64,000 nt of DNA from a virus. Shown here piece after piece: positions 1 through 63,846 of this stretch. The notes beneath the pieces were generated by a model. That model did no database searches. It was not told the origin of the DNA and saw only the letters and a list, made by a program, of their open reading frames with translations. Made by a program: the position numbers and the translations under genes. Location: IMG/VR virus record IMGVR_UViG_3300046648_000213, positions 19,210 to 83,209 of that record. The stretch is one strand, 5' to 3'. Positions within the stretch are counted from its first letter, which is position 1; each line of letters opens with the position of its first letter.

Positions 1-1503
1 GCCCCAATACACCATGCCGCGGAAGACAGCGGCGAGGTCGGCCAGCACCTTCCACGCATCCTCCTCCTGCTGCAGGTAGCAGTTGCAGGTGAAGCGCGGC
101 TCGTACGTCTTGTTTCCGGCCTCGTCGAGGAAGCCGGTCGGGACCAGCTGATCGCAGTAAGCGGCGATCGAGTACAGCTGCCACTTATCGATGTGCGTTT
201 CGTCGATGTAGTTGCCGAGCCCGTAGCGCTTGTTCGTCGCGAGGTCGTAGAAAATCCACGCCGGGTTGTCCGTCCACGCGACCTTGAAGGTGCCGTCCCA
301 CGTGCCGTTGTAGCCACGACTGGCCGGGTCATAGTTCGACGGCACCTTAACCTTGATGCCGTAGATATGGTACGAGCGCCGGGGAATTGAACTGAACTGA
401 GTTGCATCGACTCGAAGTCCGACGATCGCCGACAGCGGGTAGCGCAGCTTGGCTTCAATGACCTCGGTGTACGAGTCCCAATACAGGTCGTTCGTGACGT
501 TCGACTTCACGTTGTCCGGCGTGTCGCGCACGAGGCGGATCGACCACGGGGCCTGCCCGGTGAGCGGCATGTAGAAGCTGCGCTCGTACTTAGCTGTCGT
601 CTTGCCGGAGATCGTGTCGGTGTTCGACGTGCCAGGCACGCGCCCGCCGTAGATGTAGATGTCTCCGTTGCCGCCGGTCTTCGTGAGCCGCACCTCGTAC
701 TGGCCGTTCACGAGCGGAATGTCGATCACGCGGGCCGACTTCTTCATCTGCAGAAGGGCCGACTGCGAGCCGGAGCTCGACATGCCGGCCGAGGCGTTCC
801 CCGAGTTGGCCTCATAGGTCAACTGGATGTCGAGGTCGCTCTTGTTGATCGTCTCGGTGGTGTAGGTCACCCACTCCGTCGTTCCCACAAGCCTGTAGTC
901 AAGCTGGTACGAGACGTTTCCGTTGCCGTCCCAACCGAGCGCCACGCCGATGCCGTAGGCGGCAGACGGTGCTTGCCACTGGTATTGGTGCATGCCGGTG
1001 ACCGCGTTCGACCATGATGAGCCGACCGGCATCGGGACGAAGGGGCCTCCGCCGTTCGAGAGCTCGACGTGGTACGAGACGGACGAGCCGTGAATGTCGC
1101 CTGTGCCGGTGTCCGTTGAAGTCAGCGCCGGTACGCTCACCGTGAGCCGCACCGCGTTGGTTTCCGGATTCGTGATCGTGCGCACGAGCGGCGTCTGCGC
1201 GGACACCTTTTGTCCGACAGTGACTTCGTTCTCCGCTTCCGGAAAGCCAGCGATGTACGCCTGATCCGCCGTGCCGGTACGCACGTCGACGCGCACATTG
1301 GAGAAGTTCCACGAGCCGTCCGTCGCCTGGAGCGGCGTGTCGTCGAGATAAATGGACTGGAGGCCGTTGACCAGACCGCCGATCTCACCCTCGCTCAACA
1401 GGTCGAGCACGCGCGCGTACTCGGAGGATCGCAGCGTATTGGGGTCTTCGTTTCCGCCGCCGCCCCCGCCGCCCTTGTAGCCGATGATTCCTTTACGTGC
1501 CAA
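1..1503 (-). CDS. Tail tip / host-specificity protein J-like (C-terminal part runs off the window)
   Basis: TTG start after GGAG; translation MARKGIIGYKGGGGGGGNEDPNTLRSSEYARVLDLLSEGEIGGLVNG has the lambda J N-terminal LLSEGEI motif; follows I, K, L, M genes. Confidence 0.9.
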   Translation of the reverse strand, partial: MARKGIIGYKGGGGGGGNEDPNTLRSSEYARVLDLLSEGEIGGLVNGLQSIYLDDTPLQATDGSWNFSNVRVDVRTGTADQAYIAGFPEAENEVTVGQKVSAQTPLVRTITNPETNAVRLTVSVPALTSTDTGTGDIHGSSVSYHVELSNGGGPFVPMPVGSSWSNAVTGMHQYQWQAPSAAYGIGVALGWDGNGNVSYQLDYRLVGTTEWVTYTTETINKSDLDIQLTYEANSGNASAGMSSSGSQSALLQMKKSARVIDIPLVNGQYEVRLTKTGGNGDIYIYGGRVPGTSNTDTISGKTTAKYERSFYMPLTGQAPWSIRLVRDTPDNVKSNVTNDLYWDSYTEVIEAKLRYPLSAIVGLRVDATQFSSIPRRSYHIYGIKVKVPSNYDPASRGYNGTWDGTFKVAWTDNPAWIFYDLATNKRYGLGNYIDETHIDKWQLYSIAAYCDQLVPTGFLDEAGNKTYEPRFTCNCYLQQEEDAWKVLADLAAVFRGMVYWG

Positions 1504-22156: not shown

Positions 22157-22500
22157 TGCCGTCCGCTCCCATCGCACACGCGGCAGGCGCTGTTTGCGTA
22201 AAGCGGAAGGCCGTCGACGAGGGCTTGGCGCTCGAAACGTGTGCCGCCGCACGCAGCGCAGGCCACAAATGGCTTGCCAGCTTCGTCTGCTGCTTGATCG
22301 ATGACATGTTTGGCGCTGATTGCGGCCAATACACCTTTCAGAGAGCGCTCAGCGGCATGGCGAGAGACTCTTTTGGCGTGAATTTGGTGCGGAGAAGCCT
22401 GGACACTGCCAATGTCGCCCACGATTGGGGCAACACTGTCCATTGAAGGGTCGAAGTCAGGCTCGAGGAGCGCCTCGTGACCGTGGAAGTTGTCTTCCAT
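22150..22500 (-). CDS. Hypothetical Zn-ribbon protein
   Basis: CAAC...CRVC pair; overlaps neighbours in operon. Confidence 0.45.
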   Translation of the reverse strand: MEDNFHGHEALLEPDFDPSMDSVAPIVGDIGSVQASPHQIHAKRVSRHAAERSLKGVLAAISAKHVIDQAADEAGKPFVACAACGGTRFERQALVDGLPLYANSACRVCDGSGRQC

Positions 22501-22855
22501 CTTGTTCTTGTCCCAATGTCTTGACCATCCGATAGACCTGTCGAGTGGAAACCTCCAACTCTTCGGCAGCTTTCTCTATGGTCATGGTGCCTTTCAGCAC
22601 TCTAATTATTGTTTGGCGCTGAACTTGACGCTTTTGGGCGACCCTCTCTCGGTCTAGGACCTTCTGAGATGGAGCTCTCGTCAAATTTCTAGCCTTCATC
22701 AACCTGCTCAAATGCCGCTCAGTGACACCAAGCATTCTAGCCGCTTCTGTGCGGCTTATCTGCTTGGTCGAATAGGCTTCCAGTACCGAGTCCCGTTGTT
22801 TTTCTTCTTCTGCCGAGAGTGCCCCGATTGCTGAGCCTTGCGGCTTTTTAGTCAT
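22457..22855 (-). CDS. Tandem helix-turn-helix DNA-binding protein
   Basis: Two HTH units: ISRTEAARMLGVTERHLSRL and MTIEKAAEELEVSTRQVYRM. Confidence 0.75.
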   Translation of the reverse strand: MTKKPQGSAIGALSAEEEKQRDSVLEAYSTKQISRTEAARMLGVTERHLSRLMKARNLTRAPSQKVLDRERVAQKRQVQRQTIIRVLKGTMTIEKAAEELEVSTRQVYRMVKTLGQEQDGRQLPRSRGAPRA

Positions 22856-23044
22856 GGCCCGGATTGTGGACGACATGGCAGGAATGGGCAAGTCCCTTTT
22901 TTCCGAGAATGTCAAAAAGTTCTGGAAAATGTCGGAAATTTCGTAGGGGAGAGGGACCCGGCGCGTCGGCGCAATGGACAGGGAAAGCCACCCCGTCAAA
23001 GCCCCTAAACGGTCTTTGGCGCGCGCCGTGCGATGGAAAGCGTC

Positions 23045-23272
23045 ATTGTCCATTGTCCCAATGATTCTAACGACTCAGACGGCGCACACGGCGCACACAA
23101 TGGACACTGACAGCACATAGGACAGTGGATAGGACATAGGCACTGGCAGTGTCCATTGTCTAGGCACTGGCACTGGCACTGGCACTGGCACTGGCAGCTG
23201 TCACTGCAATGGACACTGGCACTGGCACCGATCGTTAGCACTGGCATAGGCACTGGCACTGTCCATTGTCAT
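23045..23272. repeat. GGCACT hexamer tract mixed with TGTCCA/TGGACA half-sites
   Basis: 5 tandem GGCACT at 23163-23192 plus further copies; TGTCCATTGTC x3. Confidence 0.85.
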
Positions 23273-24462: not shown

Positions 24463-24757
24463 TGTCCAATTTATCGATTGGACAGCGAAAAACGCATAAC
24501 CTGATTTTTCAGTGTCTTTTACACTGGCTTAGAGCCCCGCGCGGGGCTGTCCAATTGGACAGCCTATAGCGCGGGGCTCTATCGTTTTGTGTTTCGTTTT
24601 TTGCTGGCTGTCCAATTGGACAGCCGCGCGCGCTGCTGTCTTTTGCTGGCTGTCCAATTGGACAGCCGCACGGCGCGCGCTGCTGATGCGCTGATGCGCT
24701 GCTGATGCGCTGATGCGCTGCTGATGCGTTGATGCGCGGCACTGTCCAATTGGACAG
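24463..24757. repeat. Cluster of CTGTCCAATTGGACAG palindromes with a GCTGATGC tract
   Basis: Perfect 16-mers at 24547, 24608, 24650, 24742; split copy at 24463-24484; (GCT)GATGC repeats at 24680-24735. Confidence 0.92.
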
Positions 24758-25003: not shown

Positions 25004-25259
25004 GAATCCGGCGCTTCTCGAATTGGACATTCAGACACTGAATGTTGAGGCTATTCATTTGCGCGCTGACTTTGAGGCTCTGCGTGCCAAAACGATGAAT
25101 GAGCTATCCAGCGTTATGCCGACGCTGCGAGATGTGACGCGCGCGCTCGAACGCCCGACGCTCACTGACGAGAAACGCCTGATGTTGGCTGAAGTGCTGG
25201 CGCAACGTCTGGACGTTGTTCAGGACGTGATCGACAAGTTGGCAGCAGCGAAGAGATGA
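24993..25259 (+). CDS. Hypothetical coiled-coil protein
   Basis: GAGGAG RBS; overlaps upstream stop. Confidence 0.65.
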   Translation: MVGKNPALLELDIQTLNVEAIHLRADFEALRAKTMNELSSVMPTLRDVTRALERPTLTDEKRLMLAEVLAQRLDVVQDVIDKLAAAKR

Positions 25260-25338
25260 GAGCGAAACGCGCTTCGGCGCGTCTGCATGTGAGGCATGCA
25301 CTGACGAGCTCAGACAACTTTGATTGGGGAGTGTCCAA

Positions 25339-25689
25339 ATGGACATTGGAAACGCACAGCGCCGCGCGCTCGGTATCACGGGCGATTCTATGTGGATGCA
25401 GCTTGGCATGACCGAAGCGCAGTTCCTTACCGCGCAGAAGCAGCACGCGCGAGATCGTGCGGATCGCTCGGCAGGCGAGCGGGCCTACAAGCTGGATCGT
25501 TACGAGGTGTCCGCGCCGATCGGCCGCATGCGCACGATGCTGCCTATCCTCAGCACGAGCGACAAAGCGACGGCGGTCGAGTTCTACGAGTCCGGCAAGC
25601 ACCTGGGCTACGAGAAGAACTGGCCGGACGATCCGAAGCCACGGCAGCTGTCGAAAGGGCAGCTGCGCAAGCTGCGTAAGCGCCACTGA
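25339..25689 (+). CDS. Hypothetical protein
   Basis: GGGGAG RBS; ATG lies inside a TGTCCAAATGGACA palindrome. Confidence 0.65.
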   Translation: MDIGNAQRRALGITGDSMWMQLGMTEAQFLTAQKQHARDRADRSAGERAYKLDRYEVSAPIGRMRTMLPILSTSDKATAVEFYESGKHLGYEKNWPDDPKPRQLSKGQLRKLRKRH

Positions 25690-25690
25690 C

Positions 25691-25830
25691 TGAGTTCGCA
25701 TCAACTCAACTGAGTTGATTCGATCTCACCTCATATGTATTGGGCTCGACCCGATTCATATGACGTGAGATCATCTCGCGCCTGCTCAACTCAACTGAGT
25801 TGATACCAACTTAACTGAAACCGAATGGAG
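25691..25830. repeat. 5-bp periodic YSR-NN tract forming a long inverted repeat (tract 1)
   Basis: 28 pentamers; TCAACTCAACTGAGTTGA at 25701 and 25786; inner stem GATCTCAC/GTGAGATC and TCATATG/CATATGA. Confidence 0.8.
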
Positions 25831-25835
25831 TTTGT

Positions 25836-26051
25836 ATGAACACGAAAAATCTGAACGGCCTGACCGACGTCCGCCACATCTTGACCGACGCTCGCGGGAA
25901 GTTGGAAGAGGCGCGCGCACGGCGCCGCCACGCTGTCGCATACACGATCGTGTGCCTGGGCATCGTCGGCGCGCTGTGCGCCACCATGTTCACGCCGCAG
26001 AATGCGCACGCCGCGCGCTCGCATCATTCGAGCGTGCGGTCGCATCACTGA
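25836..26051 (+). CDS. Small membrane-anchored protein
   Basis: GGAG RBS; one TM segment. Confidence 0.6.
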   Translation: MNTKNLNGLTDVRHILTDARGKLEEARARRRHAVAYTIVCLGIVGALCATMFTPQNAHAARSHHSSVRSHH

Positions 26052-26071
26052 CTGTCCAATTGGACACTGAC

Positions 26072-26097
26072 AAAGCCGGCGCAATGCCGGCTTTTTT
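26072..26097 (+). terminator. Intrinsic terminator
   Basis: AAAGCCGGC-GCAAT-GCCGGCTTTTTT. Confidence 0.8.
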
Positions 26098-26670
26098 GCT
26101 TTTCTGCTCTCTGTCAATACCCTGAAAAATATTTTTCCGGGTCTTTTTGACACACCCCTCTGACTGACATTTCTTGCCGTTCGGGACCGAAACCGAATCG
26201 AGTCCGCAAAATTTGACAAAATCCTCCGCATGTGCATCAACCCCGAAAAACACAAGCCCTTGTGTTTGTAACTGTATGCCGACCTTAATTACTCTTTTCG
26301 AGTTTGGCAGCCGCTCTCCCTTACCAGACAAGAGTTTGAACCCTTCTATATTCAAATTATTAGTTAAAAAAGTAGGGTATGAGGGGGGTAAGCTCAAGTG
26401 CCTTAAAGACCGAGGACTTTCTCGTATGTGCTTGATCTAACAGGGAAAAATATTTTTCCTCACTCAGATTTTTGCTCTCTCGACCTTGGCGAACCCCCAA
26501 GGGGGTACTTTTCGGCAAGTCATTAAACAGTTGCTGTAAGTCCTTGATTTACAATGGACATTTCAACCGTGTGGCGTAACTCACACAGTCAAGTCGAAAA
26601 CCATTGACTTTTGAAAACCACCTCAAAATCGTCGCTTTCCTCAATACAATCAACCACTTACGTCGAAAAA

Positions 26671-26857
26671 TCGATGCATGGGTGTTGTAAATCGATGCAT
26701 GGGTGTTGTAGCTCGATGCATGGGTGTTGTGGGGTCGATGCATGGGTGTTGTGACCTCGATGCATGGGTGTTGTGGGTCGATGCATGGGTGTTAGGCCCC
26801 TCGATGCATGGGTGTTTGCCTATTTTTTGTGCAAAAACGGCTCGATGCGTGGGTGTT
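26671..26857. repeat. Iteron-like array A (TCGATGCATGGGTGTT x7 plus 1 variant)
   Basis: Copies at 26671, 26692, 26713, 26735, 26757, 26778, 26801, 26842; 21-23 bp period; IHF-consensus AATCAACCACTTA at 26648. Confidence 0.9.
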
Positions 26858-60395: not shown

Positions 60396-60548
60396 ATGAC
60401 ACGCGACGAGATTGAGCAGGCAGTGAAGGAAGCGTATATGGAACTCAAGCGCATTCGCGCGAGCGGAAGCAGCCAGAAGGCGGTACTCATGGCCCGCTCT
60501 AAGCTGCGAGCCGCCTATGCAAAGCGTCGGCGTGCGCAGATGAACTGA
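60396..60548 (+). CDS. Small basic protein (50 aa)
   Basis: GGGAG RBS; MTRDEIEQAVKEAY. Confidence 0.55.
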   Translation: MTRDEIEQAVKEAYMELKRIRASGSSQKAVLMARSKLRAAYAKRRRAQMN

Positions 60549-60620
60549 GACGAGTTGGACCGGACTTGATCCGGTTCTGCTCACATCAACTGAACTGAAT
60601 CGGAGTGGACTGAAATGAAA
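60541..60620. repeat. 5-bp periodic YSR-NN tract (tract 2)
   Basis: tgaac tgaga cgagt tggac cggac ttgat ccggt tctgc tcaca tcaac tgaac tgaat cggag tggac tgaaa tgaaa. Confidence 0.75.
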
Positions 60621-60998
60621 CAGGCTCAACTCGACAAACTTCAACCGAACGTGGGCGACGAGGTGATGCTCGTCGAGCAAGCAGGCTCGAGCACGTTCTA
60701 CACGAAGGTCGTCGTCACGCGGGTGACGGCCACCGGCGTCTTCGATGCGAAGGGTTTCCGCTTCAACGAGGACGGCAGCGAGCGCTCGCCACACCCCGGC
60801 ACAGGCATCAAGAGGCACTGCGAGTGGGTGACGACGGCGAACGAGCAACTTGCCTTGCAGACGGCGATCTTCAAGGTGTCGCGCGAGCTCCCGTTCCTGA
60901 AGCTGCGCTCGGCGTCGAAGGAAGGGGTAAGGGAATTTTTGGACGAGGTGCAGAAGCGCACCGATAGACTGAAGGAGTTGGTAGATGCGACCCGATAA
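60615..60998 (+). CDS. Hypothetical protein
   Basis: GGAG RBS; VTRVTAT..RFNEDG.E. Confidence 0.7.
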   Translation: MKQAQLDKLQPNVGDEVMLVEQAGSSTFYTKVVVTRVTATGVFDAKGFRFNEDGSERSPHPGTGIKRHCEWVTTANEQLALQTAIFKVSRELPFLKLRSASKEGVREFLDEVQKRTDRLKELVDATR

Positions 60999-61545
60999 AG
61001 CGAAGCTGTTCATGGACAACGCGATGTCCATTGCGGCGCACAGCAAGGACAAGTCGACGAAGGTCGGCGCGCTGATCCTTGACGAGAAGCGGGGATTCGG
61101 CCCAGGCGGCTACAACGGCATCCCGCGTGGGCTGAACGACAACCTGCCGCACCGGCACGACCGCAGCGGCCCGAAGTACCGATACTTCGAGCACGCCGAG
61201 CGCAACGCGATCTTCGCCGCCGCGCGCGCCGGGTATCCCACGGACGGCTGCACGATGTTCGTGACGATGTTCCCGTGCTGCGATTGCGCCCGCGCGATCA
61301 TTCAGGCCGGCATTGTCCAACTGTACACGCGCAAAGCGGACCCGGCCGCGACGAACTGGACGGAGAGTTTCACCGCGTCGCGCGAGATGCTGATCGAGGC
61401 CGGCGTGAAAATCACGTACCTCGACGAGGCGGGCAACCTCTGGTTCGATCCGCCGTACAGCATCAAAGTGCGGCTGCCGCAGCGCTCGTGGAGCGACCCG
61501 GCCTTCACCGGCGTGGAGTTCCCGGCCGGCAACGAACTGATCTGA
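60985..61545 (+). CDS. dCMP deaminase
   Basis: SKD.STKVGA, GYNG, HAERNA, PCCDC. Confidence 0.93.
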   Translation: MRPDKAKLFMDNAMSIAAHSKDKSTKVGALILDEKRGFGPGGYNGIPRGLNDNLPHRHDRSGPKYRYFEHAERNAIFAAARAGYPTDGCTMFVTMFPCCDCARAIIQAGIVQLYTRKADPAATNWTESFTASREMLIEAGVKITYLDEAGNLWFDPPYSIKVRLPQRSWSDPAFTGVEFPAGNELI

Positions 61546-61572
61546 GTTCAATTTAATTGAACTGAATTTACA
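61538..61572. repeat. 5-bp periodic tract 3 with AGTTCAATT-T-AATTGAACT inverted repeat
   Basis: tgatc tgagt tcaat ttaat tgaac tgaat ttaca. Confidence 0.6.
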
Positions 61573-61578
61573 TAATAA

Positions 61579-61815
61579 TTGTTAACAAACAAAATGAGCA
61601 AAGTACAACACGCCAAGGATTCACAGGGGTTTCAGGAGAAACCCGTACACCCGCGGTGCGGGGACTGCCAGCACTTCAGCAGCGAGGTTGAGCGCTGGAC
61701 GCCTTCCTGGTCGAAGACTGAGTACGTTCGCGAGCACACGCTGCGCTGCACACTTGGCGGTTTCAAGGTCGGCAAGTCCTCAGTCTGCAGCAAATTCGCG
61801 CGCAAGGAGGCATGA
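61579..61815 (+). CDS. Small Cys-rich protein
   Basis: CGDC.HF...RC.LGGFKV....C. Confidence 0.7.
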   Translation: MLTNKMSKVQHAKDSQGFQEKPVHPRCGDCQHFSSEVERWTPSWSKTEYVREHTLRCTLGGFKVGKSSVCSKFARKEA

Positions 61816-62466: not shown

Positions 62467-62715
62467 TTAGTAGTTGCTGTCGAGCCAAGCCTTCGCCCAC
62501 GTGATCGCGCGGTCGTTGGCCGCCGTCTCCGTGTCGAAATAGCCGATATCGAAGAAGTGGAAAATCTCGCCCTCGTCTTCGTCTTCCCACGGGCCGCGCT
62601 CGACTTCAACCCAAGCGTGCCAGAGGAAATTTTTGCACTCGGGAAACGACCTGATCGTCCATTCGCGATGCTCTACTTTTGCTGACGGCTGCTTCAAGGT
62701 GCCCTCCGGAGTCAC
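62467..62715 (-). CDS. Small acidic hypothetical protein
   Basis: GTGA overlap with rep stop. Confidence 0.6.
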   Translation of the reverse strand: MTPEGTLKQPSAKVEHREWTIRSFPECKNFLWHAWVEVERGPWEDEDEGEIFHFFDIGYFDTETAANDRAITWAKAWLDSNY

Positions 62716-63548
62716 GCGGCCTCAATGACCTTGGCGTCGCGCTTCTTCTTTACGGTGACGAGGTAGGAAGGGCGCGGCCCGATGGTGTAGCTGTCCAGGA
62801 ATTCAGGCACGAGCTCATCGAGCGCGTCCTTCAGCTTGGCACGGAAAAGGCGGGGGTTCTTCTGCTTGCTCCCGCAGAGCCCGAGCAACGTCTCTGCCTT
62901 GTACGGCAGAGGAACCTTGTGGGTCGAGTAGAAAGCGTGCAGCCACTTGGCGAGGCCGGACAGCTTGAAGTGTCGTGCCCAATCGAGCAGCGTCATCTCG
63001 TCGCCGGTGAGAATGTTGGCAAGGCTAGGGTCGAGGACGATCGTGAACTCTCCTCTTACGTCGTCGTCGTGGTGGCCCTCCTCCAGCAACTTGCTGATGA
63101 GGTGGGAACCATACACCTTTCGGCGCTTCTGTCCGGTGATCTCGACGTACACGGTGCCCTCCAGCAGCCGGCGGTATGACGCTCGCAGTCGTTCGTAGGA
63201 GAGGCACGATCGGTCCCATCCAAGCCCGTTGATAGCGTTCAGCCCCGTGACCTTGACGACCTCTCCGAACGGCGACGTGCGCGCATGGTGGCACAGCTGC
63301 ATGAAGACGAGGTGGTCGTCCTGATCCAACTGCTTGCCGGTATAGCGAATCTCGACATCCTGCAGAGACTGGACGACCTCGTTCTCCAAGTTTCTGCGGG
63401 GCTTTCGCTTGTCGAGCACCGCGAACAGCGCGCTGTTCACGAGGCTCTTCGACATACCGCGAACCCTGTCATCCCACAGAGAAAGCTGCTTCGGGCGATT
63501 AGTGAACTCCGCTTCAAGCTGGCGCGCGCGATCGAGGGCGGTCTTCAT
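62712..63548 (-). CDS. Plasmid replication initiator, TrfA family
   Basis: NSALF, YTGKQLDQDD..VF, LAKWLHAFYSTH..P.P.....L..LCGS, LKDALDEL; adjacent iterons. Confidence 0.88.
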   Translation of the reverse strand: MKTALDRARQLEAEFTNRPKQLSLWDDRVRGMSKSLVNSALFAVLDKRKPRRNLENEVVQSLQDVEIRYTGKQLDQDDHLVFMQLCHHARTSPFGEVVKVTGLNAINGLGWDRSCLSYERLRASYRRLLEGTVYVEITGQKRRKVYGSHLISKLLEEGHHDDDVRGEFTIVLDPSLANILTGDEMTLLDWARHFKLSGLAKWLHAFYSTHKVPLPYKAETLLGLCGSKQKNPRLFRAKLKDALDELVPEFLDSYTIGPRPSYLVTVKKKRDAKVIEAA

Positions 63549-63593: not shown

Positions 63594-63740
63594 TTCGTGG
63601 ATTGAGGAACATTATTCGTGGATCGAGGAACACTTTTCGTGGATTGAGGAACGGTCCGTTCGTGGATTGAGGAACACTTTTCGTGGATCGAGGAACGCTT
63701 TTTCGTGGATCGAGGAACGCTTTTTCGTGGATCGAGGAAC
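63594..63740. repeat. Iteron array B (TTCGTGGATYGAGGAAC x7), probable oriV
   Basis: Copies at 63594, 63615, 63636, 63659, 63680, 63702, 63724; 21-23 bp period; IHF-like AATCAGCCGCTTA and AT-rich tract downstream. Confidence 0.92.
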
Positions 63741-63846
63741 ATCTGATGATTTGAATATCGCTGAAAATCAGCCGCTTAACGCTGAAATTCACAGGAAATA
63801 AGCAGTTTATAAGCATTCTCTTTATTAAAACCGTCCCCTGCCCCAC

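Follow-up and report, generated by a model that had tools for sequence, protein, structure and literature searches.

Pentamer arrays of a TrfA/iteron phage-plasmid as possible dispersed docking sites for a ParG-like ribbon-helix-helix protein

The arrays of the omega protein of pSM19035, a Gram-positive plasmid, have a 7-bp step and, to our knowledge, no copy of them lies inside a coding gene; the inverted-repeat (IR) sites of the plasmid-prophage N15 are scattered over its genome. N15 possesses four such separate centromere sites, IR1-4 (PMC7205306). In type Ib partition systems, as described for two plasmids, arrays of approximately 90-100 bp composed of short degenerate boxes lie upstream of the par operon, are coated by a ribbon-helix-helix (RHH) protein, and double as operators (PMC3130281, PMC3074162). 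In TP228, ParG cooperatively coats approximately 100 bp of degenerate 4-bp boxes and 4-bp spacers upstream of parFG, which function as operator and centromere (PMC3130281), and the centromere of pCXC100 consists of nine unspaced 9-bp repeats bound by the RHH protein ParB (PMC3074162). The tract considered here, tract B, is an intergenic series of pentamers in IMG/VR virus record IMGVR_UViG_3300046648_000213 (83,209 bp, rated complete by CheckV). Bases 19210-83209 of this record constitute the window, the whole stretch of 64,000 nucleotides that was analysed; positions are those of the window unless marked as genome positions, and a strand is given only for features that have one. Tract B is one of six related loci in the record, for which a role as DNA docking arrays is tentatively proposed.

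Tract B (25691-25830) consists of 28 in-register pentamers of the form Y-S-R-N-N (pyrimidine, G or C, purine, and any two bases). It extends from the TGA stop codon (25687-25689) of a 121-aa open reading frame (ORF) on the plus strand (25324-25689), which it abuts, to the sequence GGAG (25827-25830), the ribosome-binding site (RBS) of a plus-strand 71-aa ORF with a hydrophobic stretch (25836-26051, with its ATG at 25836). Counted from 25691, all 28 pentamers have Y at position 1, 27 have S at position 2 and 26 have R at position 3, and the complete Y-S-R triplet is present in 25 of the 28, in agreement with the strict 5-bp register that an earlier reading of the sequence alone (the sequence-only reading) had described between the stop codon and the RBS. 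The variable dinucleotide that it had reported after each constrained triplet is also borne out, as the entropies of positions 1-3 are 0.68, 1.18 and 1.15 bits and those of positions 4 and 5 are 1.88 and 1.85 bits. The Fourier power of the 140 nt at period 5 is 8.23, compared with 0.14-1.03 at periods 2-4 and 6-11, and none of 20,000 dinucleotide-preserving shuffles attained this value (mean 0.72, standard deviation 0.42, maximum 3.51). A sliding scan of the 83,209-bp record in 140-nt windows found tract B to be an outlier together with three further regions: power exceeds 7.0 only at genome positions 59, 1568, 44897 (tract B) and 79728, and the next best value is 2.9. Among public runs, one DNA run, from a rhizosphere metagenome that may be the source sample, was found to hold the stretch, and no RNA run was found. 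An independent Logan assembly contig of this DNA run has 0 differences over 25200-26100; this agreement is a check on the assembly, not independent biology.

A position weight matrix (PWM) for the pentamer, made from the tracts (consensus T-S-A-A-C) and summed over 8 units, was applied to the record with a cut-off of 19.1, the maximum of 20 shuffled genomes. Only six loci surpass it, with scores of 19.3-36.5. Tract A (genome 57-191, upstream of an ATP-dependent ligase-like gene) and tract D (genome 1549-1717, ending at the start codon of a parA-like gene) are outside the window and were detected by both the PWM and period 5, as was tract B itself (PWM hit at genome 44895-45049, window 25686-25840). 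Tract C (genome 79750-79859, window 60541-60650), likewise detected in both ways and containing a small hairpin, reaches from a stop codon over the RBS and into the start of a 127-aa ORF. Tract F (genome 80732-80796, window 61523-61587), a short array that carries the palindrome TGAGTTCAATT-T-AATTGAACTGA, is flanked by a dCMP deaminase gene and by an ORF of 78 aa. The sixth locus, site E (genome 19597-19636, window 388-427, plus strand), holds a core copy with the sequence TGAAC TGAAC TGAGT TGCAT CGAC. The main tracts have scores of 31.7-36.5 when read on the plus strand and of 22.1-33.6 when read on the minus strand, which does nearly as well because T-S-A is its own reverse complement; such symmetry would be expected of duplex-DNA sites that are read by a two-fold symmetric protein.

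What the six loci share is a grammar and a core. Pairwise local alignments yielded only the core and matches of 18-81 columns, so it is the grammar that recurs and not a duplicated sequence. The 11-bp palindrome SAACT-G-AGTTS occurs four times in the record (0.095 expected; at most one in 200 shuffles), once in tract D, once in site E and twice in tract B, at three distant loci and always with its central G on the plus strand. Aligned with their flanks, which are similar, the four copies have the same orientation and give a core of five pentamers, approximately 24 bp: TSAAC TSAAC TGAGT TGANT CGAY.

Site E is the most telling locus for the question of whether these sequences act as DNA or as RNA. 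It is located within a minus-strand gene for a 1190-aa tail protein, on the antisense strand, far from any plus-strand gene start, and codon usage there is poorer than in any other 12-codon window of the gene (rank 0 of 1179). The G+C content of the site at third codon positions (GC3) is 0.25, compared with 0.86 for the gene on average, and genome-wide the site is one of the five lowest places in 19,356 windows. This cost to codon usage indicates that the DNA sequence itself is under selection there; its retention against coding preference agrees with a site in duplex DNA and is difficult to reconcile with an mRNA leader, and the strand symmetry and the palindromic cores point in the same direction. 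Other 12-codon windows in called genes also have very low GC3 (0.08-0.25), at genome positions 53048, 35933, 5795 and 59008 (window 33839, 16724, outside the window, and 39799, respectively); these could be more embedded DNA signals or errors of the rough gene calls. The PWM hits of tracts A and C overlap the ORFs that follow them by 30-45 nt. The first 12 codons of the genes after the tracts are not unusual in codon usage (ranks 77, 32, 25, 72 and 5 of 93), and the possibility that the arrays are imposed on the coding starts after A and C was dropped since these first codons are ordinary.

Judged by its gene and repeat content, the genome is that of a TrfA/iteron phage-plasmid. Rough gene calls place the structural arm on the minus strand and the early arm on the plus strand, and Pfam matches include a family A DNA polymerase, an SNF2 helicase, an SMC-like ATPase, a large terminase, an S49 protease, a dCMP deaminase and a TrfA-family replication initiator (62712-63548, minus strand). 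About seven iterons of 21 bp (63594-63742) adjoin the trfA-like gene, and a second, orphan iteron array with no adjoining initiator lies at 26671-26816, approximately 840 bp downstream of tract B; the two arrays differ, with approximately 6.8-6.9 copies of 21 bp in each. One ORF spans the ends of the record, which implies that the map is circular or permuted. Past the end of the window come, in order, tract A, the ligase-like gene (recognized by motifs read by eye in its translation), tract D, the parA-like gene of 217 aa (genome 1706-2359) and an ORF of 109 aa that overlaps its end (genome 2350-2679). Tracts C, F, A and D surround the initiator gene and are contained within approximately 5.2 kb around the trfA-iteron-parA module.

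The 217-aa protein is of the Walker type (AAA_31 4.9e-14, MipZ 2.1e-11, CbiA 6.7e-10 and VirC1 3.1e-4 in Pfam); it starts directly with the P-loop KGGVGKTT and so is a small Walker ParA that lacks a helix-turn-helix (HTH) domain at its N-terminus. The 109-aa protein matches the RHH domain of Mnt at E 0.36 as a single sequence and at E 0.0038 as a profile of 60 of its 133 relatives (E <=0.001). Eight of these 60 relatives match known families (Arc 3, NikA-like 2, HicB 2, RHH_1 1), and the nearest ESM Atlas clusters are of partition determinant, ParG and RHH families, by which the protein is classed as a ParG-like RHH protein. Tract D contains a terminator-like hairpin and then a sigma-70-like promoter, TTGAAT-16-TATACT, before the parA-like gene. 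A small ParA, an RHH gene after parA, and an array of short repeats over the par promoter are together laid out as in a type Ib partition cassette, here carried by a phage-plasmid. The sequence-only reading had recognized no partner protein, a statement that was limited by its window, as the parA-like and RHH genes lie just outside it.

With these neighbours, the arrays may quite possibly be dispersed docking sites of 5-bp boxes for the ParG-like RHH protein, acting as centromere and operator, although this proposal is a tentative one. Tract B would then be a double-stranded-DNA docking sequence, one of six loci of T-S-A-A-C boxes in direct and inverted orientations. A small dimeric DNA-binding protein, for which the likeliest candidate is the 109-aa protein encoded directly after the parA-like gene, would nucleate on the cores and spread cooperatively over degenerate boxes; at a 5-bp step, successive dimers would be on opposite faces of the DNA, and neighbours on the same face 10 bp apart. 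All six loci would serve as dispersed centromere-like partition sites, and those that overlap promoters or gene starts would serve as operators too. Among the identities offered in the sequence-only reading, an array bound by a polymerising protein at half-turn intervals is the best fit to a grammar that is alike on both strands, a palindromic core in four copies, coverage of the parA promoter, and the codon cost of site E.

The internal structure of tract B is compatible with this proposal. The 18-mer TCAACTCAACTGAGTTGA is present at 25701 and 25786, an offset of 85 nt or 17 pentamers exactly as had been claimed, and each copy begins a core: B1 (25701-25725, plus strand; TCAAC TCAAC TGAGT TGATT CGATC), which holds the 11-bp palindrome CAACTGAGTTG, and B2 (25786-25810, plus strand; TCAAC TCAAC TGAGT TGATA CCAAC), which follows 85 bp (approximately 8 helical turns) after B1 in the same orientation. 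The further stem said to be enclosed by the 18-mers is also present, as an inner inverted repeat (25722-25772) with 23-nt arms (25722-25744 and 25750-25772) that are 87% complementary and a 5-nt loop. Both arms are unique in the genome. At 16 of its 23 positions the 3' arm agrees with the core and flank of tract D, and the arms thus resemble degenerate, inverted copies of the core. Tract B can thus be read as a core, an inverted degenerate copy, a degenerate copy and a core in one register, which accounts for both the period and the hairpin. The two cores are on the same face of the DNA, flanking the two inverted degenerate copies.

Because of this layout a transcript of tract B would fold into a long hairpin, as the sequence-only reading had stated. 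Folded as RNA, 25685-25840 forms a single long hairpin of -57.6 kcal/mol (shuffles -32.2 +/- 3.7; z -6.83; none of 200 as stable), with a predicted duplex of approximately 48 bp if the tract is transcribed. A rival explanation is an RNA-level element, transcribed within the operon, in which the hairpin would be a processing stem, as the sequence-only reading had also suggested, or a stabilising stem of the RNase III type, and the pentamers up to the RBS would be a leader bound by an RNA-binding protein with a 5-nt footprint, following a TRAP-like logic, that tunes downstream translation. Besides the very stable fold, this explanation has in its favour that each main tract, on the coding strand, fills the interval between a stop codon and the RBS that follows it, that forward boxes predominate in tracts A and C, and that a hammerhead ribozyme candidate 370 nt upstream suggests processing of the operon mRNA. 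Hairpin symmetry, however, also follows from the layout of the DNA sites, and only two of five tracts fold better than mononucleotide shuffles (z of -7.1 for B and -4.0 for D); A (-1.1), C (-2.1) and F (+0.3) have no exceptional fold. Site E is antisense and far from an RBS, yet clearly selected; the RBS of the 71-aa ORF is outside the hairpin of tract B; the grammar is strand-symmetric; and no TRAP homologue was found with the TRAP model. An RNA-level function is considered rather unlikely on this evidence.

The hammerhead candidate is of type II and lies at 25260-25319 on the plus strand, where it fills the 64 nt that separate two ORFs. No other Rfam match in the window is better: it has 33.4 bits against a gathering score of 37, and its E-value is 0.0064 when 67 kb and all families are searched and 2.9e-5 in a local search; the CUGANGA and GAAA motifs and the GUC cleavage triplet are intact, and there are three stems. 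At gathering thresholds Rfam has no match in the window, and in E-value mode tract B gives only miRNA-type matches at the level of chance, such as MIR5565 with 21.4 bits.

Several observations weigh against docking arrays for the RHH protein. The 5-bp step is shorter than those of documented RHH arrays, which are 8 bp for ParG and 9 bp for ParB of pCXC100 in the accounts cited (PMC3130281, PMC3074162), and one dimer per 5-bp box would require coating on alternate faces. The 7-9 bp repeat step of known RHH arrays is not present in tract B, where the step is 5 bp and the power at period 10 is 0.16 versus 8.23 at period 5. A limited literature search found no description of an RHH array with a 5-bp step. 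Tract B is 43 kb from the par genes, and a simple promoter scan found no promoter in it. The main tracts are all between co-directional plus-strand genes and end at an RBS, an arrangement that also fits a role at the RNA level. In a set of 190 related loci, comprising DNA-polymerase relatives from IMG/VR (80), JGI/ENA metagenomes (79) and GTDB genomes (18) plus 13 ParA loci, no T-S-A-A-C array was found (best PWM score 17.8, below the 19.1 that shuffles of the genome itself can reach). The ParA relatives, which have at most 43% identity, carry other upstream repeats, with period 5 in none of the 13. IMG/VR holds a single homologue of the RHH protein, with 50% identity across residues 42-98, and its locus counts both ways. 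In favour of the docking arrays, it too is situated beside parA and a TrfA-like rep gene, and its intergenic region has repeated CTTGAT boxes that share the letters TTGA/TCAA with the arrays described here; against them, these boxes are 16 bp apart and not 5.

This locus, at L195:2755-2905 on a 39-kb IMG/VR contig, is a module like that of the phage-plasmid, in which the RHH homologue is accompanied by a divergent parA gene, another small ORF that follows parA, and the TrfA-like rep gene; it suggests a plasmid-maintenance cassette that is shared among phage-plasmids.

The duplex-DNA evidence, namely the PWM signal on both strands, site E and the palindromic core, applies equally to another protein or purpose, such as a phage regulator, a replication or origin factor, or a host nucleoid protein. 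A two-HTH protein encoded at 22457-23053 on the minus strand is a candidate regulator. The replication module offers some support for this explanation, as tract B is approximately 840 bp upstream of the orphan iterons and tract A is just downstream of the first iteron array, and so do the promoter-like site within tract A (TGGACT-17-TATCAT) and the dispersed operator family, TGTCCANNTGGACA with 18 perfect copies, that the genome already has. On the other hand, tract D, at parA and the RHH gene, is alone among the arrays in having an obvious cognate pair of genes; a site within a late tail gene is hard to explain as a promoter operator; and no other candidate was found by Pfam or PHROGs among 38 distinct proteins. 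A different binder is thus possible but doubtful.

The palindrome TGTCCANNTGGACA (TGTCCA-NN-TGGACA) has, in addition to its 18 perfect copies, one copy with a single mismatch (0.10 expected), all within the early arm at 24548-49732 (examples are at 24548, 25332 and 26053). Two of its sites bracket the small operon of tract B, and another regulator probably uses it as its operator, with the copies laid out like stoperators. Host sites of the IHF, FNR and LexA types were rejected for tract B, having no fit by eye to their consensus sequences.

Arrays of period 5 are also known from phages as the guide RNAs of VIPR systems. The vrRNAs, which are found beside a Vipr RAMP gene, consist of 9-16 YNNGG units, in which NN is hypervariable, followed by a 3' tail that is conserved; the alternative units NNNGG, YNNNG and NNNNG all keep a G, and some arrays are interspersed with hammerheads, as described in 10.64898/2026.04.26.720920. 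Non-canonical units of GAC, CAC, WGT or TGH plus NN, as described in 10.64898/2026.10.21.760802, always have a Vipr-like fold nearby. The arrays of the phage-plasmid are likewise phage-borne, with period 5, three constrained low-entropy positions and two freer high-entropy positions in each unit; a TGA/NN unit would fit the reported TGH/NN (10.64898/2026.10.21.760802); the hammerhead candidate nearby recalls those of some VIPR arrays; and two distant relatives (L144 and L152) carry true VIPR loci. Guide RNAs of a divergent VIPR-like system, in which a protein filament reads a fixed triplet and a variable dinucleotide, are nevertheless a very improbable explanation. Unlike the VIPR units of those descriptions, the pentamers have no fixed G (position 2 of tract B is C in 15 and G in 12 of 28), and position 4 is A in 43 of the 78 units pooled from four tracts and so is not hypervariable. 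The tracts have no shared conserved 3' tail, whereas the L144 array repeats a tail of approximately 85 nt; tract B is self-complementary; and the tracts overlap promoters, RBSs and gene starts, with one copy inside a coding gene.

Nor was a Vipr protein found at the sequence level. A type II Vipr profile of 121 sequences (SUSP1 Vipr and 120 relatives) searched against 1171 six-frame ORFs of the genome gave a best E-value of 0.4, versus 1.9e-49 for the control, the Vipr of L152; the best E-value of a single-sequence phmmer search was 3.4; and the RAMP, Cas7 and DevR models of Pfam have no match in the genome. The guide-like noncoding RNA scaffold that the sequence-only reading had put forward is not upheld by these results. 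It is also scarcely probable that the tracts are transcribed scaffolds of a new period-5 RNA-protein filament, a sister of VIPR with Y-S-R/NN units, no fixed G and a partner that is not Vipr-like by sequence, in which the cores would be handles for processing or loading. The case calls for caution in reading period-5 tracts of phages as VIPR guide RNAs, as the signal in this genome is most likely one of duplex DNA; the features that discriminate it from VIPR are strand symmetry, palindromic cores, promoter overlap, a copy inside a gene, and the lack of a Vipr gene.

The two relatives with VIPR loci, both found through their polymerases, are observations in their own right. At L144:22700-22997, on an 86.5-kb metagenome contig from a distant polymerase relative, a GGY/NN array of period 5 with a tail of approximately 85 nt repeated at least twice lies downstream of a ribonucleotide-reductase small-subunit-like gene and is cut by the contig end; by its units and tail it is classed as a VIPR-type vrRNA array. 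At L152:2401-2460, a period-5 tract with units of the AGC/GCT type is approximately 530 bp from the plus-strand ORF at L152:2994 that the Vipr profile matches; this locus is recognized as VIPR from that match, possibly with a unit that is not GGY.

The arrays might instead have no function at present, being either the decaying remains of a pentanucleotide repeat or copies of a small selfish repeat element that had spread into the gaps between genes. In tract B a few words dominate (TCAAC four times, TGAGT three times), the tracts share only short local similarities, and the arrays appear to be lineage-specific given their absence from the 190 related loci, as would be expected of a young expansion within a lineage. 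Decay is difficult to reconcile with a register that is unbroken by indels over 28 units despite their divergence, with palindromes that are nested in this register, with an identical core orientation in four of four copies, or with the retention of the tail-gene copy at the worst codon usage of the gene. A functionless repeat is accordingly judged a distinctly poor prospect.

Sequence searches for tract B itself and for its neighbours were largely negative. A blastn search of 50,697 phage records with the tract B region found no match, and the 18-mer has no exact match in IMG/VR. The close relatives are known as proteins only, a polymerase with 96% identity (P0001) and an RHH protein with 79% identity (P0122). 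For the 121-aa ORF upstream of tract B, no usable match was found among families, the ESM Atlas or IMG/VR relatives; PHROGs and Pfam searches of the neighbouring ORFs were mostly empty; and PDB sequence searches with three unassigned ORFs yielded no match below E 0.19. An intrinsic-terminator-like hairpin with a T run, at 26072-26094 on the plus strand, closes the small operon of tract B; tract B itself was rejected as an intrinsic terminator, having a stem with no T run after it. In the divergent regulatory region between the two arms, at 23163-23261, there is a 6-bp tandem repeat, GGCACT, with approximately 16 copies and 73% matches.

If the arrays are docking sites for the RHH protein, they would be the first centromere/operator array with a step of half a helical turn (5 bp), on which the protein would coat alternating faces of the DNA. 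Within type Ib, they would further be the counterpart to N15 and its multi-site centromere, including a site in a tail gene that is maintained against codon preference. A 109-aa protein and cores of 25 bp would make this a compact, testable system for plasmid partition.

These arrays differ from those of omega in that the latter have a 7-bp step and belong to a Gram-positive plasmid. They are placed in an omega-like manner, before the ligase-like gene, parA, and the 71-aa, 127-aa and 78-aa ORFs, much as the omega RHH protein, a global repressor and centromere binder, occupies runs of short units before several operons (10.1101/2022.05.29.493902). The resemblance to N15 is that of a phage kept as a plasmid with several separate sites, here four core copies at three distant loci; N15, in the account cited, differs in being of type Ia, with a large HTH ParB (SopB) and single palindromes, without pentamer arrays or an RHH protein (PMC7205306). 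As in pCXC100, unspaced and weakly conserved short repeats are located upstream of a type Ib par operon and their periodicity was first noticed from sequence alone, whereas the repeats of pCXC100 have a step of 9 bp, are all direct, and occupy a single locus (PMC3074162). Tract D is like parH/OF of TP228 in having short degenerate direct and inverted boxes upstream of the gene for a small ParA, followed by that for an RHH protein. It is unlike TP228 in its step, which is 5 bp without an AT-rich spacer rather than 8 bp with one (PMC3130281), and in the number of loci, which is six, at most 43 kb apart and one of them inside a gene, versus one in TP228; binding in the phage-plasmid is a prediction. 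The arrays match type Ib systems in position, length, degeneracy and mixed orientation, and differ from them in their 5-bp step and their dispersal over the genome.

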